Positions 30,567-58,866 of a DNA stretch of 64,000 nucleotides are shown here, piece after piece. Within the stretch, counting starts at the first letter, position 1; each line of letters opens with the position of its first letter. Made by a program: the position numbers and the translations under genes. The notes below the pieces were generated by a model. That model was not told where the DNA came from, searched no databases, and saw only the letters and a program-made list of their open reading frames with translations. Source of the DNA: Carcharhinus amblyrhynchos (lineage: Eukaryota); the NCBI GenBank assembly GCA_965287045.1, contig OZ336885.1, forward strand, positions 22,072,001 to 22,136,000, given 5' to 3'.

Positions 30567-33500
30567 CTATCTCACCACAAGACATGATACACAAAGTTTA
30601 GATGGGCCTATACAATCATCATGGCAAAATGCTCCACATCCTTTGCACATGATCATGGCCTTTAATCTGCAAGAACATTTAAAAGTCATTTCATTGACAC
30701 CACTGCTTTCAGCAAATGTCTGAGCAGGAACTGCAGAATTATGATTCCCAAAGTTTGCCTTCTGACTCAGTGACATCACACTTCCAGCAAGAGATGCTGG
30801 AAAGCTACCCATAGAGAGTTCGGAAACTGATGTGTTAGTGATATGACTGAATCCTGTAGTACTGAAGGAAAGTTTAGGAAGTTTGCCATATAACTGCTGC
30901 TGAATACTGAGCTGGGAATTGATGAGAGAATGTTCCGAAGAATGCTGAAATTGTAGACCAGTCTCTTTCATAACCTTTCCAATATTGCAGTCCATCTTAA
31001 TTGGTCCAACATATAATTTGTCTTTGGAATCAAATGGAATGTATGCACCATCATTTATACCAATAATGTCTTGATTTTGGTTATTTCCCCGACATGCAGG
31101 GATATTTTCAGTTTTGATGACTTTAAAGCTTTCATGCAGTTTAGGAAGCCAATCCCTTCTTACATTTGGCATACCCTCCATTCCAATTAAATTCCTCTCT
31201 GGTGAAGTCTGAGAAATGGCTGGCACATGCTCAATAACAGAACCCTTTGACTGAATCTTAATTACTTCTGTTGCTCTACAGCTTCCATCATTTTGCACAA
31301 CTACAGTGTTATGCAAATAACCATGGCTAACCTTTTGCCTCACTGGCATCCCACTGCAAGCCTTCGCTATTACTGAACCAAATATAGTGTTCTGAGTTTC
31401 CAGATTTTTACAAAAGGTTGGTGTGTTCGGAATGTAATAGCCAGACACAGTAGAGCTACTAATTTGCTTTAACGTTTCAGGCATGCTTCTCATTACAGGA
31501 TTTTTCAAATTGGGATTCTGTGTGTTTCCAGAGGAAACATTCATTAGTTCTTTGCTACCATCTTCAAAACTGCAAGCAGCTGGTGTTATTTTGTGTGTTG
31601 CTGTCCCAGACTCTTCAACAGGCCTAGAAAGAATTGGCATTCTATTTAGCTGCTCTTGTAATACTGAATCTTCCCCTAGACTTTTACAATCTCTGTCCAA
31701 GACCATCTGCGATTGCACATAATGCTTACTGGATTGCAATACAGTTGATTTCATCTGCTCCAGACGTTTTTGAGACAGATCTCTGAAATCTCCTGACAAT
31801 ATTTTATGCAAATGATAATCGGCTAACTTGATTCCACTGTGTACACCACTGATTATACTTTTGAGATCCGTTGTTTGTGCAACATGATCAATAGTCGACT
31901 GACTGAAATTTCTTTCCTGCTTAGCTTGCGGGCTCTCGGAAGGAATTGGAGGTGGAACAAGCAACTTGGTTATTTCCAATTTTGTACCAGAATGAGACTG
32001 TGGCAAAACCTTCTCTAAAGGAAGGCTGCCCTGTAGTAACTGTGAGACCAAGGGGTTGTTGACTTCAACCGATGACAGTGGTCTATTAAAATTACCAATC
32101 CTTTTCGGCTCCTCAACACTTGGCCGTAGTGAAGAGTCAGTCTGATTTAAATTATACAAAGTTTCAGGCTTGTCGTTCTGACACTCATTTGGTCTTTCAT
32201 CTTTTTGCAGCTGATTCTCCTCCGGCAACTGTAACTGTTTGTGTGGATCACCATTATCAGTCCCTTTGCAGGCATCAGGAATTTCCACAATTACACCACT
32301 TTTAGAACAAACAGGGGCTCTGTCATCTTTAAATATTCTTTCATTTGTGGGTCGTATACAACTTTCATTGGACAGCTGGCTACTTATTTCAACGTTACAA
32401 TACAATCCATTCTTGTTCATGTCACTTCCACAGTTTTGTTTCCCTTTGCTGGTTAGCTGGTCAAAGGCATCCTCTAATACTGCAACATCAGATTCTGTCG
32501 ACTGGCGTCCACCATCTGCCGCTGCCTGCTCTGGTTTGTTAAGATGTTCTTTCACACATTCTTCTGCGTCAACAGAAGCAGAACAGTCATGCTCCTTTTC
32601 AAGTCTCCCAGACTCCAGAGAAACTTTTTGTGCTAATGAATAGCTGGGATCTTTATTGGAACATGTTGATACTATTACAGATGTCAGTTGTTTCTCTGCA
32701 ACATGTGGCTCATGTGACATATCCGGCAATATGCTAGTGTCTAGCTTATTATTTACTTTTACTTCAACACAATCACTCTCCTTTTCTTCATGTGACGGCA
32801 AAGTTAGAGAGCAAGTGACTTGATGGATAAACGGAGATCCGATTTCCTTAATGGTGCATCGATTTACCTCTTGCTCACATGGGTCAATTTCTGGAAATTC
32901 AATTGATAGCTGGGTTGACAAAACATCTGTAGTGCTTGCTTTAGTTTCAATGTCATTACTTGGTAATGAATCAGATGCTGCATTTTTCACCCCCACAACA
33001 TGGACATCCGTAGTGTTGAAAACTACAGTATTCTTTGTTTCTGCAATGACGGTTCCAGCAAAACAATAGTTTTGAAGAGGTTCCTCATTGCAAGCTGTTT
33101 TATCTTGTGGACTAGGCGTCCGAGTTTGATCACAGGGTGAATTCACAGGATTGTCAGTCTCAGAAAGTGAAAGGATCACAGTTTCACATTTAAGATTTTT
33201 GCTAGATTCTGTACAGATATCATCATTGTCTGCTGGCAATTCCAGTGTTTCAGGGACTGCATCATCCTGAAAAATAGTTTCATCACTGTCAGTCTGCCCA
33301 TCAGAAACCACGATGTCACTAAGTTGGGAAACAGTAACTTGGTTAGATTCTTGCACATCCAGCACCAACTCTGGTGATTTACTGCTAATTACAGTATAAC
33401 TGGCATCACCACCCAATTCAGTTTGCTGGATGTCATCTGCTGTCATCAATTTATTTTGTGTTGTGTCAATTAGATTGCTTTCTACACATTCTTCGATTAT

Positions 33501-33893
33501 AACACCTTGCTTAACACTAATTTCTCCATCGCTGGGTTTTTCTGGTTCATCTGTTGCGCAGGTTTGGAATAGCTGTGCTCTATACTGATGTTTTGCTGTA
33601 GTTTGTTCAACAACTTTTGTTTTTCCGTCGGCTGGTCCGGGGGAATCAGTGCCCCGTGGTCCACTACCACTACTACCCCTTCCCCCTCCTTCCACTGTAA
33701 CATTGGCAGCTGCAGCTGCTGCAGCCTCCCTTTGTGCCCTGGCTTGCTGAGCACGGGCTTTGATATCTGCAAGTGTTCTGGCACCTGTCCTTTCTCGACT
33801 GACTGTCCCAACTGTAGTGACGATCCTGGGGCATATCTGGTAGGTTGGCTGCCCTTTGACAGCCCAAGGAGGTTTGATTCTTGAGAGTTGAAT
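30567..33893 (-). CDS. ASXL1: ASXL1 large terminal coding exon (3327 nt, 1108 aa + stop): ASXM1 ([10 protein letters not shown]...[12 protein letters not shown]), ASXM2 with LVSQLL box (32034-32051), C-terminal PHD finger (30570-30677)
   Basis: Acceptor ttttgcttccag at 33894. The frame is continuous with the 1042-aa ORF ending [36 protein letters not shown], and TAG is followed by TAA. The ORF-track start at 33695 is an internal GTG. Confidence 0.95.
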
Positions 33894-36800
33894 CTGGAAG
33901 CAAAATAATGCAAATTTATTTAGAATGCTTTTGCAAAACTGGTTCTACACAAAGAAAGCAACTAGTTATACCCTGCGCAACATTTTGGTAGAGACATAGA
34001 TCCTTCTACAATTGCTAATAATTTCAAAACACTAATCTGATGAAACAAAAGGGAAAATTACACATTTAAATCTGAAACAAAAACAGAAAGGACTAAGACT
34101 ACAGAACACATTGTTCAATCTGTAAAGAGAAAAGGCAGGTTATCAGTGTCTGACTTTCAGAACAGGAAGTCATTAACATGCAAACAAAATATATTTTATC
34201 ACCAAACCTGAAATATTCCATACTTTTCCCTCATCTATTCGCACCATGCTGTTATGGTTTACCAATTGAATGTACATTCATAGAAAAATCAGGAATAAAA
34301 AGGAAAGCTTCTTGTTCTAAATAAATAAATCAACAGTACATTCTGGTTCCTGCAAAAAAGAGCTGAGGCGAGTGGTGTGCTTATGCAGTATCTCATCACA
34401 TCCTTTGGATTTCCAAAGCACAACATTAAACTCCAATTAAGTCATCATGTTGGAAAACAAGAATTTCAATCCAAAGTTTCATTTCTTTTTAAAAGATAAT
34501 ACCATATGATGAGGAAGAAACGTTGGTCAAGACACCATGAGAAAACTTTCTGCAACATCGTGGAATCTTTTAGGTCTACTTGAATGTCAAAAATAACTGT
34601 TCAACATTGCTTGAAAAGAAAGCACTACGCTAGATCAGCCCAGAAGGTGGACTGAAGTCCACAATGGGACTTGAACCCATAACACCTGATTCAGACACAG
34701 GTATGCATCAATTGAGCAAAGCTGCTGTAATAGTCTCAGAGAAGACACGTAAATTTTAAGATCTTCAATTTACAAAGCAGAATATATTCCTCATAAAACC
34801 CTGTGTAATTATTAAAACCTATTATCAAAATATCTTTCCTTGCAAAAATGGGTTTTCAACCTGGAATCAGCAATTTGCCTGGAACCAAGCACTTTCAGCA
34901 CAAGATCTCAAGAGTTCAGTAATGTTCAATATGAGCAAACTTACCAATATGTTAGTTCTATTGTAGAAAATATTTTCATTGGTATCCACGAATGCCAGTA
35001 ATGTTTTCCATTGGATTGCTGACAGGATTTGGGATAAGACCCCAGGAGGGCATTAATAATTTCGGGGAACCCCCCGACATAAAGGGCTGAATTTGACCAA
35101 CCCCAAGCTAGCATGTTTCCCACAATGGGGAAATAGGTGAGTACCTGTGCCTGAATCAGGTGTTATGGGTTCAAGTCCCATTGTGGACTTCAGTACACCT
35201 TCTGGGCTGATCTAGCATAGTGCTTTCTTTTCAAGCAATGTTGAACAGTTATTTTTGATATTCAAGTAGACCCAAAAGATTCCATGATGTGGGTGGGTGC
35301 TGCACACACCCAATCTCAACCTTACAATTCAGAGGGCAGGCAGATGCTGGAATTGGCAGCCCACTATCATATTATGGGTCAATTCAGCTCGTTATCAAGC
35401 TAAATGACCCTGATAATTCAGTGCCCACACCATAAATTTGTGGACGGAAGGGTGCGTGCTGGAAGTCTGTTTTTTTAAACTGAAATAGTCAAGGGAAGAT
35501 GTTTGCTCTTCAATCATAGGGCGACCCCTCCACCCCCCAAAATCTCAAGACTGAATACCTACCTTCCTATCCACTCCCTCACTTAACTTCCTCCTCCTCC
35601 TTCATTGATTCAGTCTACACTTTCCACTGCCTTGCAAAAGCAGCCAGCATAATCAAGGACCCCCACGCACTTCAGACATACCTCTCCTTTCCCTCTGCCC
35701 TATGTAATCCATGAACATTACGTTTCTTCTGTATATCACCCAAGAAGCAATACTTTTCATGTACACCAATACACGTGACAACAATAAATAAAAATCAAAC
35801 TACCCTCCCACCCAAATTCCTGTAGCCCTCTGAGCCAAGAACCTGAAATTGCTTGTTACATGGATCCTAGGCCTTGGGCTCCACTTCTAACTGACAATCC
35901 CAGTCTCCTTGAAGCTGCCAGCTAAGTGGATAGGCTGACAGCTCTACGGGGCAAGATATCAAGTCCCACTCGGCCCTCATTAATGAGCCCCACAGCACTT
36001 TTATTGCTCCGGTGTGACATGGAGCCAGTTGGTTCATGCTGTCCTGGCTTCTTGGTAGCTGGTGGGTTGGCTGGGGAGGGACATTGGATTACTTCCATCA
36101 AAAGAAAAATCAGAAAACACTTCCATGAGATTTAACTCATGTGCACTATGGCATATACATGATCAACTACATACCTTATAAATGCACATTTGTCAACCTA
36201 CAGAGCCAATGACCGCCAATATCCAATCAATGGGCACAAATCCAACAATAATTCAAGACAAAAATTTACTTTATTTTAGGCAACAGAACCAGACTTTTTT
36301 GTTTTATAATGCATCTTTTCCATTTACACTTCCTGTATGGGGTCTGGATCAAGCAGTATTGCAAAGAAGAAACCTTTCAACTTAAGAGAATTGTCTGTTT
36401 TAAAATGAAAGCCGCCATAGGAATTTTTTGGCACAGAAAGAGGCCACCTGGCTCATCGTGCTTGTGCCAACCAGCCTCCTCCCACTTTCCAGATTTTGAT
36501 CTGTAATCCTACAGGTTATGGTCCTTCAGGTGCAAATCCAGACACCTTTTAAATTCAAAGTGGTTTTCTGTCTCTACCACCCTTTCAGGCAATGAGTTTC
36601 AGAACCTTACCTCCTTCTGGCTACAACAAAAGCCTCATGGCCACTTTAATCCATGTACCAATCACTTCAAATATATGCCCCCTAGTTTGACGGAATGGAG
36701 ACCCATTCACAGTATCTAAGTTCCTCACAGTTTTGAGCATCTCAATTAGATCTCCCCTCAGCCTTCTCCATTCTAAGCAAAACAGTCCAGCCTGTCCAAA

Positions 36801-37536
36801 CTTTCCTTAAAAGCTGCAATTTTCCAGTTCTGGCAACATCCTCAAATCCTCTAGTGAAATTATATTGTTACTGCAATGAACTGCACATGGAGTACTCATG
36901 TTGTGCCCTGACAAATCTTTTACAGCTCCAGCATAACCTCCCTGCTTTTTTTATTCATTCTTTTGGCTAATAAATCAAAGGATTTCATATATTTTAACCA
37001 CAGATTTGACCTGTCCTGCTATTTAACACCAATATCTTCTGCCTCCACATGATTACCTTTTTGGTCTTTTATGGGCTGTAATCTTTCCTTAGCTTCTTAC
37101 TCAAAGTATTGAGGAAACATTTCTGAGTTCACCTTGATTTTGCTTGCCAATATTCTTTTCATGTCCTTTCTCTGCTTTCTCAATTTCCTTTCTGATTTCA
37201 CCTCATAGTCCCCTCAGCTTTCTATAGCAAGGTGGAATTGAGCTTTTATTTGGCATGAAGTAGAAAGTGGGGAAAATATTTTTCTCAAGCCAGGTTTGGC
37301 TTGAATGGACCACCACATTTCCTTGACTAAACTTTAACTCCAGAAAAACAAAGCAACGCTGTAACTGTCCCAAATTACTTTGCATCTCATCTAAGAAAAG
37401 TAAAATTGAAACTAAAATGATTTTTGCAAGTAATGATTCAACGTTTTTAAAAACACACATACCCTAATAGGTGGCACCTTTGGCTCTTCTTTTGTAGGAT
37501 GTTCTTTTTCTGTCCGAAAGCTATCAATTGCGGTCC
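33497..37536 (-). CDS. Overlapping +1-frame transframe ORF (ASXL1-TF), spliced 37536-37463 + 33893-33497, 156 codons, with EHSY motif
   Basis: ORF-track entries 37447-37653 and 33497-33913 join in frame at the ASXL1 splice junction (CTA TTA GG|A TTC). The ORF starts directly after UCC_UUU_C; EHSY is at 33569-33580. Confidence 0.78.
34555..35290. repeat. 149-bp inverted duplication (34555-34703 and 35142-35290) with 6 mismatches
   Basis: Manual alignment of one arm to the reverse complement of the other: 143/149 identical, no gaps, 438-nt spacer. Confidence 0.9.
36390..37200 (-). mobile_element. Degraded CR1 LINE 3' portion
   Basis: Antisense CR1 phrases (ctcaattagatctcccctcagccttctc; tctggcaacatcctc). 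Confidence 0.65.
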
Positions 37537-38213
37537 GAAAGGACTGATGATCATCAAGACGTGGCTTCTTCTCAGGGCCAGAGGTGGAGGCACTATGTTC
37601 AGAGGACTTTCTCTTTTGGTCTTTGGACTCTCCGGAATTGTGCTCCAACTCACTTTTCAAAGCAGCGCTCCTTAGAGTTAAACAGGTGATCTGATCCTTA
37701 GAAATTCCAGCAGGTTGCACATCAGTCAATTCTAAACGTCCATCAGATGTGATATGTTCTTGAGATTGTACACCAACTGGTCTTTCTGCAAGCAGTATAG
37801 GTTTGGAGTTTAAGGCAGATTTATTTGGAAGAATTTCTTCTAGCTGTCCAGGTCTAGCTTCATTTTTAATTAAACTCAGCTGATCTTCATCTGCACAGCT
37901 AACAGCATGAAACACCTTGGCTTCATGATTTTGCTGTTTCTGGCTCCTCGTATCTTGAGAAGAGACTGTACATGAAACTGTTTTTTCACTTGGTTCAGGA
38001 AGTTCAATCTGTGTTTCTTTAATAAGACTCCGCTTCACTCTGCATTTGAGGTCCACCTTTGAACTTCTAGTACATTTCCTTACTCTTTCATCCTGCTTTT
38101 TAACCGGACTTTGCTGTTTGGATGGCCCTGCTAATACAGGTGAACTGGCTTCATTTTCTATTTCCACTTGTACGGATGTCTGATGTTCTGATTCTTCTTT
38201 TGACAAGCCCAGT
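37463..38213 (-). CDS. ASXL1: ASXL1 penultimate exon (751 nt): [11 protein letters not shown]...[37 protein letters not shown]
   Basis: Lies inside ORF 37412-38260. Acceptor gttgacag at 38214 and donor GTATGT at 37462. It ends in [12 protein letters not shown] as in ASXL1. Confidence 0.92.
37535..37543 (-). promoter_or_regulatory. +1 ribosomal frameshift motif UCC_UUU_CGG in the ASXL1 zero frame
   Basis: The minus strand reads CAT CAG TCC TTT CGG ACC. This is the UCC_UUU_CG class used by influenza PA-X, at the S-F-R position of ASXL1. Confidence 0.75.
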
Positions 38214-50568: not shown

Positions 50569-51110
50569 ACGTAAGAACATAAGAACATTAGTAGGAGCAG
50601 GAGTAGGCCATCTAGCCCTTCGAGCCTGCCCCGCCATTCAATAAGATCATGGCTGATCTGAAGTAGCTCAGTTCCACTTTCCCGCTTTCTTCCCATAACC
50701 CTTAATCCCCTTGCCTACCAAAAACCTATCTACCCGCGTCTTAAATATATTTAGCGAGGTAGCCTCCACCACTTCAACGGGCAGAGAATTCCAGAGATTC
50801 ACCACCCTGAGTGAAGAAGTTCCTCCTCAACTCCGTTCTAAACTGCTCCCCCCTTATCTTGAGGCTGTGCCCTCTAGTCCTGTCCTTTCTGAGCCGGAAG
50901 AATCTCTCTACCTCTACCCTATCCATCCCCTTCATTATCTTATATGTCTCTATAAGATCCCCCCTCATCCTTCTAAACTCCAACGAGTACAGACCCAGTC
51001 TATTCAGCCTCTCTTCATAGTCCAACCCCCTCATCTCCAATATCAGCCTAGTGAACCTCCTCTGCACTCCCTCCAAGGCCAAGATATCCTTGCGCAAGTG
51101 CGGCGACCAA
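50569..51110 (-). mobile_element. Young 5'-truncated CR1 LINE 3' end, same subfamily as 48741-49204
   Basis: WSPHLRKDILALEGVQRRFTRLI...RTRGHSLKIRGEQFRTELRRNFFTQ; tandem TAAGAACA tail. Confidence 0.9.
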
Positions 51111-51606
51111 CGTAGAGAAAATGTAATAGAATTAGCAGTATTTTGTACACCAGTCAAAGCTAATGTACTCCTAAGCTAATTTCCATTAAAAAACATTAAT
51201 AAATAAGCTCAGCGTGAGTAAATCTGTTTGGGCTCACAAATGTTGGTTCTTGCAGATAAAACATTTTAAAAAGAGCAAAAAATCCACAAAAAACCAAAAA
51301 TGCTGAAAATGTTTCCATCAGCCAAACAGGTGCTGTCAAGGGAAAAAAGATAGTTTTCAGGTCAATCATTTGATGAAAGCCTTTGACCTGAAACATCAAT
51401 TCTGTTTCTCCATCCCACATACAAAATAAAATTAAAGGTTACACCATGAGCAGCAGCAAGCGAGTCAGAATCAATACATTGGTTAGAGGCACTGAAGATG
51501 TCTCCAAATTAGCTATCATCCAGAATGAGGAAGAGTCAAACATTTCTAATTTATCTGCTTTTGTCTTTCCACTCATCGCAATTTGCCTTTAAATAAAAGC
51601 GTATTA

Positions 51607-57340: not shown

Positions 57341-58866
57341 TAGAACATAGAACAGTACAGCACAGGATAAGCCCTTCGGCCCTCGATGTTGTGCCAAGCT
57401 ATGCCCGAACCCAAGATCAAGCTATCCCACTTCCCATCATTCTGGTGTACTCCATATGCCTATCCAATAACCGCTTGCAAGTTCCTAAAGTGTCCAACTC
57501 CACGATCACAGCAGGCAGTTCCACACCCCAACCACTCTGAGTAAAGAATCTACCTCAGACATCCCTCCTACATCTCCCACCATGAACCTTATAGTTACAT
57601 CCCCTAGCAACAGCTACATCTACCCGAGGAAATAGTCTCTGAACATCCACCTATCTATCCCTCTCATCATCTTATAAACCTCTCAAGTCATTTCTCATCC
57701 TCCTCCACTCTAAAGAGAAAAGCCCTAGCTCCCTCAACCTTTCCTCGTAAGACCTACCCTCCAAACAAGGCAACATTCTGGTAAATCTCCTCTGCACTCT
57801 CTCCAATGCTTCACAACCTTCTTATAGGGAGGTGACCAGAAATGCACACAATATCCCAAATGTGATCTCATCAAGGTTCTGTATGGTTGTAGCATAACCC
57901 CACGACTCAAACTCAAACCTCCTGTTAATAAACGCTAACACACTATAAGCCTTCTTCATGGCTCCATCTACTTGACAGGCAACCTTCAGAGATCTGTGGG
58001 TATGAACCCCAAGATCTCTGTTCCTCCACATTCCTCAGGACCCTGCCTTTGACCCTGTAATCCACATTCAACTTTGTCCTACCAAAGTGAATCACTTCAT
58101 ACTTATCAGGGTTAAACACCATCTGCATCCTATCAATGTCTCTTTGCAGCCGACAACAGCCCTTCACCTCGCCCACTACTCCACCAATCTTGGTGTCATC
58201 AGCAAATTTACTGACCCACCCTTCAGCCCCCTCCTCCAAGTCATTAATAAAAATCACAAATAGCTGAGGACCCAGCACTGACCCCTGTGGTACACCACTG
58301 GTTACTTGTCTCCACTCTGAAAATTTTCCATCCACCACCACCCTCTGTCTTTATGAGATAGCCAGTTACTTATCCAATCAGCCAAATTTCCTTCTATCCC
58401 ACACCTCCTTACTTCATGAGCCGACCATGGGGAATCTTATCAAGTGCCATACTAAAATCCATGTATACGACATCAACTGCTCTACCTTTGTAGACACACT
58501 TGGTTACCTCCTCAAAGAATTCAATTAAAATTTGTGAGGCAGGACTTGCCCCTCACAAAACCATGCTGGCTATCCCAGAAGATTAAGCTGTATCTTTCCA
58601 AATGGTCATAAATCATATCCCTAAAGACCTTTTCCATTAACTTACCACTGTAATAAGGCTAACTGGCCTATAATTACCAGGGTCATTCCTATTTCCTTTC
58701 TTGAAGAGAGGAACAACATTTGCCACTCTCCAGTCCTCTCGCACTATCCCCGTGGACACTGAGGGCCCAAAGATCAAAGCTAAAGGCTCCGTAATCTCAG
58801 CCCTTGCCTCCCAAAGTATCCTAGGATGTATCCCATCTGGCCCAGGGGACTTAGCAACCGTCAGGT
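57341..58866 (-). mobile_element. CR1 LINE 3' 1.5 kb (RT to tail), frameshifted
   Basis: VTSGVPQGSVLGPQLFVIFINDLEEG...SKFADDTKIGG RT motifs; tail TAGAACATAGAACA at 57341. Confidence 0.9.

Follow-up and report, generated by a model that had tools for sequence, protein, structure and literature searches.

We found that the penultimate coding exon of shark ASXL1 carries two in-frame UUU_CGG motifs, UCC_UUU_CGG (site 1) and, seven codons downstream, AGC_UUU_CGG (site 2), and that a +1 shift at either one would lead into the same open reading frame. The explanation that we favour, with a probability of about 55%, is that site 1 is the main predicted entry into the +1 frame and that site 2 offers a second, weaker way in, passive and kept in place by protein-level constraint and by constraint on the whole block of sequence around it.

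The transframe (TF) product ASXL1-TF belongs to the handful of candidate programmed frameshifts of vertebrates; how it is made came into dispute in 2026. Truncated ASXL proteins resembling ASXL1-TF have been linked to myeloid cancer and to Bohring-Opitz syndrome. The ASXL1 TF ORF was predicted to be reached by +1 frameshifting by Dinan, Atkins and Firth in 2017 (PMC5644247), in whose account the ghostshark (Callorhinchus milii) alone has UCC_UUU_CGG in this gene. The CGG form of the A-site codon, which the initial annotation of this DNA had pointed out, was therefore already published, and site 1 with CGG is known; what appears to be new is site 2 and the pattern found in the paralogs. The suspicion that site 2 had gone undescribed agrees with the accessible literature. 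The text of PMC5644247 does not mention a second UUU_CGG, its Fig. 2a, which aligns the region, probably displays the ghostshark stretch, and no second ASXL1 site or tandem UUU_CG cassette was found in the sources covered, which include PMC5644247, PMC5009743 and PMC5052127 and few subscription papers.

Two UUU_CGG motifs and one +1 frame in shark ASXL1

The window, the whole stretch of 64,000 nt that was analysed, holds shark ASXL1 on the minus strand, with a best named shark match of 99% over 78 aa of the penultimate exon. Six ASXL1 exons map within it by protein matches, whose contig is distinct from those of ASXL2 and ASXL3 in the same genome. The features are collected in Table 1. The donor at 37463 is confirmed by the loose ends of contigs and the acceptor at 38213 is placed from sequence and protein match only. 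The splice from 37463 to 33893, which the continuity of the +1 ORF across the two exons requires, was observed in contigs from three of four public runs, the fourth yielding no contig here, which does not speak against it. The ASXL1 introns also contain decayed fragments that we take, from their translations, to be LINE-type reverse transcriptase (50774-51175 and 57943-58350, both on the minus strand, and about 36500-36900).

Table 1. Positions of the ASXL features (window coordinates unless a locus is given)
Feature	Position	Strand	Basis
ASXL1 penultimate coding exon (exon 12, human numbering), containing both sites	37463..38213	-	sequence and protein match
Intron between penultimate and last exons, GT...AG	33894..37462	-	sequence and contig junction
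ASXL1 last exon, zero-frame coding part, PHD finger at its end	30567..33893	-	97% to named shark ASXL1, 1111 aa
+1 (TF) ORF, penultimate-exon part	37463..37536	-	first 10 residues identical to published ghostshark TF peptide
+1 (TF) ORF, last-exon part, ending at TAA 33499-33497	33497..33893	-	sequence
+1-frame EHSY, HCF-1-binding-type motif of ASXL-TF	33569..33580	-	sequence; motif described in PMC5644247
Site 1, UCC_UUU_CGG, predicted ASXL1 +1 shift site	37535..37543	-	CGG form published for ghostshark; nonamer validated in PLEKHM2
Site 2, AGC_UUU_CGG, 7 codons downstream, weaker E-site codon	37514..37522	-	sequence; same in 3/3 covering runs; ghostshark deduction
Block without differences in three relatives, from about 48 nt before site 1 and including both sites	37463..37591	-	contigs of the relatives
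ASXL2 UUA_UUU_CGG and GAC_UUU_CCC	L006:2890-2882 and 2869-2861, contig C7	-	homologous to the two ASXL1 positions
ASXL3 UCC_UUU_CAG at the site-1 position; 145-codon +1 ORF with EHNY	L002:1581-1573; L004:1679-1321, contig C8	-	sequence

Positions 37543-37514 of the minus strand read TCC TTT CGG ACC GCA ATT GAT AGC TTT CGG, so that, as the initial annotation had it, the two motifs stand 21 nt apart in the ASXL1 zero frame and share one +1 ORF. No +1 stop is found between them or downstream before the TAA, which leaves 156 open codons from site 1 and 149 from site 2. The combination of an open +1 frame and the EHSY motif has a probability of 0.0004 under synonymous resampling. Ahead of site 1 the +1 frame is already free of stops for 38 codons (37544-37657, minus strand), and likewise for 24 codons in ASXL2 and 47 in ASXL3. 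Since the invariant block also begins well before site 1, constraint is not confined to the downstream overlap.

Site 1 has the form UCC_UUU_CG[U/G] and stands in frame where the penultimate exon is about to end, as ASXL1-TF requires. Site 2 has the zero-frame UUU followed by CG (37519-37515); its E-site codon is AGC, outside the YCC of YCC_UUU_CG sites, so that it would work like a canonical member of that class yet is not one. The repeated CTTTCGGAC is the sole exact repeat of at least 9 nt at in-frame lags of 6-60 in the 4077-nt coding sequence of exons 12 and 13. Given the protein and local codon usage, the chance probabilities at site 2 are 0.18 for UUU_C, 0.046 for C_UUU_CG and 0.006 for AGC_UUU_CGG, values that are suggestive only, as the pattern was picked post hoc.

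At site 1 the P-site tRNA-Phe would slip from UUU to UUC, at a rate near 1% that we infer for ASXL1 by analogy with PLEKHM2. As the initial annotation suggested, PLEKHM2 shifts +1 at UCC_UUU_CGG, reportedly at about 1.1-1.3% in reporters (PMC11451614, PMC12551717). In influenza PA-X, where a dual-luciferase assay gave 0.74%, replacing the E-site UCC by AGC, GGG, CCC or AAA is described at second hand as cutting shifting by 40-70% without abolishing it (PMC3498833). As a UUU_CG in an open +1 frame, site 2 would, to judge from these PA-X mutants, probably leak at roughly 30-60% of the rate of site 1. The Phe slipped at site 2 corresponds to the seventh residue of the product from site 1, and the two products would therefore be equal in length, differ over six residues and end in the same EHSY tail. 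This six-residue difference means that mass spectrometry could read each site separately, and the rules for E-site and A-site codons could be tested in their native context.

Folding of the exon-12 sequence alone, pseudoknots aside, revealed no stable 3' structure: four of four folds were no better than shuffles (z from +0.3 to +1.4). On these folds, an antizyme-like cassette with a 3' RNA stimulator is ruled out for either site within the exon-12 sequence. Coupling of the two sites through ribosome collision was likewise set aside. Collided ribosomes are spaced 9-10 codons apart, and the gap of seven codons is below that spacing.

Conservation at and around the second site

The zero-frame S-F-R, with FRT at both positions, was observed in 17/17 chondrichthyan proteins (15 species) and in none of 103 bony ones, among the 120 matches listed of 316 homologues; these chondrichthyan proteins read FRT..FRT, versus FRN..V in 103/103 bony ASXL1. 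The SVH that the initial annotation gave for the second position of human ASXL1 accords with V-H in 100 of the 103 bony proteins among the matches listed and is compatible with the human TF peptide in print.

At the DNA level the sample is thin: besides the window it covers three close relatives and, by deduction, a single chimaera, but no ray or skate. In all of these, site 2 has UUU rather than UUC and CGG rather than AGR; in the ghostshark, AGC UUU CGG is forced by the zero-frame D-S-F-R-T together with the +1 I-A-F-G-Q. The codon-conservation check proposed for site 2 by the initial annotation is thus passed across the shark-chimaera split, but it does not discriminate, as the neighbouring codons are equally invariant. 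In the relatives the 129 nt from 37463 to 37591 contain no variable place, whereas the adjoining 309 nt on the upstream side contain 10, of which nine are synonymous (P = 0.03); selection of the runs for shared words favours identity, and one reaches only 37642. By-eye deduction of the ghostshark sequence gave the same picture. Third positions agree with the window at 9/9 same-residue codons in the first ten, including 5/5 outside both sites, and at 19/28 in codons 11-44. Against this background of 19/28, the 3/3 matches at site 2 would be expected about 31% of the time in a dual-coding region.

At site 2 the +1 Phe at residue 7 (Phe7) dictates the U of UUU and also the C with which CGG begins. 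This Phe is present in about 164/165 non-teleost bony vertebrates, a count derived from 164 matches to VFT, part of the alignment rows and the total of 200 in PMC5644247; there the zero frame reads V-H and offers no Phe codon to slip. Only 1/34 teleost rows have it, which counts against the block-wide reading and indicates that the constraint is able to relax. Conservation nevertheless fails to single out site 2, since its flanks vary just as little and non-teleost bony vertebrates retain this +1 Phe where no slippery codon stands. The codons of site 2 would most simply be held by the zero-frame Phe and Arg and by a ten-codon block constraint, which would act without a slippery codon too. CGG is rare here, making up 6% of Arg codons outside TF, yet it stands at both sites in the shark and in the ghostshark; block-wide constraint leaves the third-base G of CGG unaccounted for, and some excess is unexplained. 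Two further searches were negative: a comparison of the exon-12 +1 frame with database proteins, meant to yield further chondrichthyan codons, gave five candidates without a significant match, and none of 594 pattern matches to host DNA of relatives in metagenomes was confirmed.

The paralogs and the origin of the second site

ASXL2 and ASXL3 were identified in the same genome, so the paralog evidence at the DNA level is that of one genome. ASXL2 carries AG_GUC_UCU and has a +1 frame that matches the published ghostshark ASXL2 TF, and ASXL3 was assigned from 11/11 matches to named ASXL3 proteins. The homologous ASXL2 codons are TTA TTT CGG ACC ... GAC TTT CCC, with UUU_C at both positions (chance 0.17 at the first and 0.75 at the second). 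From UUU_CGG to past EHNY the ASXL2 +1 frame is open for 185 codons, covering the 39 codons that precede the GUC_UCU site already in print, an extension with a chance probability of 0.045. The ASXL2 UUU_CGG, upstream of the published RG_GUC_UCU, is thus a candidate second, influenza-like entry. The last exon of ASXL2 has a second AG 7 nt in (G000:C7 near 51112802, minus strand, L005), at which splicing would give the +1 (TF) frame, and the exon-12 +1 frame has two AUG codons; these would be possible non-frameshift routes to ASXL2-TF.

In ASXL3, the 145-codon +1 ORF with EHNY has a chance probability of 0.001 under synonymous resampling, and its EHNY is in register with the motif of ASXL1. UUU_C at the site-1 position has a chance probability of 0.75, and UUU_CAG lies outside the tested shift motifs. 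Compared pairwise, the ASXL1 TF peptide and the ASXL3 +1 frame align weakly, with coinciding motifs (34% over 116 aa, E 0.002); as a six-frame query of the genome, the ASXL1 TF peptide matched only itself. Of the chondrichthyan ASXL3 proteins, 9/11 have a zero-frame RTQLL, which is compatible with EHNY. Sharks retain the site-1 Phe in 7/7 cases, followed by Q or R, while 4/4 batoid proteins (P0128-P0131) have lost it; as three of these four still have RTQLL, a strict link is less likely. The available text of PMC5644247 gives ASXL3 no conserved TF or EHxY, whereas the ASXL3 of this shark has an open +1 frame with EHNY; it also gives ASXL2 and ASXL3 no influenza-like site, whereas both have UUU_C at that position here.

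The initial annotation suggested that a second slippery site might increase the overall transframe output in this lineage. A shark-specific gain of site 2 was set aside because the F-x6-F pattern is also found in ASXL2 of sharks (catshark), rays, coelacanth and lungfish and in one further protein, being absent in paddlefish; it occurs as well in 1/11 chondrichthyan ASXL3 proteins. As the pattern is common to ASXL1 and ASXL2, the second Phe would be ancestral and lost in bony ASXL1 rather than gained in sharks. On the simplest reading of the sequences, then, site 2 looks ancestral and lost in bony-fish ASXL1: an old F-x6-F protein pattern that would have been kept in cartilaginous fish, with V-H in bony-fish ASXL1. 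No cyclostome outgroup was identified among 54 representatives, 10 of them looked up by name, and the word ancestral consequently rests on the paralogs.

A broader proposal, which we regard as speculative and on the whole doubtful, is that cartilaginous fish keep an ancestral ASXL design. A UUU_C(G) entry into TF at the end of the penultimate exon would predate the gene duplications and would have been accompanied, 21 nt further along, by a second entry under selection; both would persist in shark ASXL1 and ASXL2, the first together with a full TF in shark ASXL3, and bony ASXL1 would have traded the pair for one UCC_UUU_CGU. If this were true, the ancestral design would be one of additive tandem +1 sites setting the dose of a vertebrate transframe protein, and ASXL1-TF and ASXL2-TF would have one shared origin, which would meet the objection that two unrelated mechanisms are required, with ASXL3-TF added. 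The paralog pattern bears in any case on a shared origin of the ASXL1 and ASXL2 TF and on a past or present TF in shark ASXL3.

Alternative explanations and known +1 shift sites

The alternative that we take most seriously, while thinking it improbable, is that site 2 is a selected auxiliary site: two weaker UUU_CGG motifs would together do about the work of one UCC_UUU_CGU, and bony-fish ASXL1 would have swapped the pair for the stronger single site. Multiplying the PA-X factors (0.5 for CGG, 0.3-0.6 for AGC) gives the pair 0.65-0.8 of the output of a CGU site, compared with 0.5 for site 1 alone, provided that the factors are multiplicative. The loss of site 2 in bony fish and the difference between CGG and CGU would fall on the same branch, as compensation would predict, and this counts against a passive site 2. 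The protein contrast between chondrichthyan and bony ASXL1, the low chance probability of the exact AGC_UUU_CGG and the presence of UUU_C at both homologous positions of ASXL2 point the same way. However, the contrast is a single evolutionary event, the conservation is block-wide, the second UUU_C of ASXL2 is likely by chance, and the E-site codon of site 2 is not YCC. Nor is CGG necessarily weak, as the reported rate in PLEKHM2 exceeds that in PA-X, although the assays differ. It is unlikely, at the other extreme, that site 2 is inert, merely a zero-frame S-F-R, possibly the relic of an ancient 21-nt duplication, with no measurable transframe product. The two 21-nt units match at 14/21 positions, both codons flanking its UUU are suboptimal in PA-X as reported, and the motif YCC_UUU_CG given by the PLEKHM2 authors (PMC12551717) excludes it; yet the E-site substitutions described for PA-X lowered shifting and never abolished it, and the amalgavirus consensus, itself only predicted, is just UUU_CGN (PMC5052127). 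If site 2 is only passive, as we favour, its description is a footnote to the 2017 paper.

Still less probable, in our judgement, is that TF is reached via alternative splicing, in which case both motifs would be bypassed and dual coding or splicing control would account for the conserved block. A 2026 preprint, as far as its accessible text goes, confirms selection in both ASXL1 frames and holds that the ASXL1 and ASXL2 dual-coding regions arose most parsimoniously by alternative splicing, and in 2025 ASXL1 shifting was described as not experimentally validated (PMC12551717). The invariant block lies within 80 nt of the donor, and the second AG of the ASXL2 last exon would give the required frame. 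Against this, only the standard junction was observed in the contigs of all three relatives, although contigs drop rare forms; the first AG in the last exon of ASXL1, judged by eye, comes after 14 nt and would lead into the other frame; the nonamer of site 1 is reported as proven to shift in PLEKHM2 (PMC11451614, PMC12551717); and the 2017 paper reports no suitable splice form (PMC5644247).

Shark ASXL1 can be compared with several described systems. PLEKHM2 has a nonamer identical to site 1, and its validated junction is also QSF-GP; a single site is described there, with a weak effect of a 3' stem-loop, whereas shark ASXL1 has two motifs, no stable 3' fold and AGC at site 2. Influenza PA-X (UCC_UUU_CGU, PMC3498833) resembles the shark sites in its UUU_C P-site core, its CGN A-site codon and its lack of an RNA stimulator; the shark differs by having CGG for CGU at both sites and AGC for UCC at site 2, each of which is reported to have lowered shifting in PA-X reporters. 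The amalgavirus UUU_CGN (PMC5052127) is a looser consensus that site 2 matches in full; it is a sequence-based prediction in viruses, which depend on it for access to the polymerase ORF, and no tandem copies were seen in the account available. A further one is the ASXL1-TF described in 2017 (PMC5644247), with which the shark ORF shares gene, exon, position and the EH[N/S]Y motif, and whose published length range of 126-163 codons includes that of the shark ORF.
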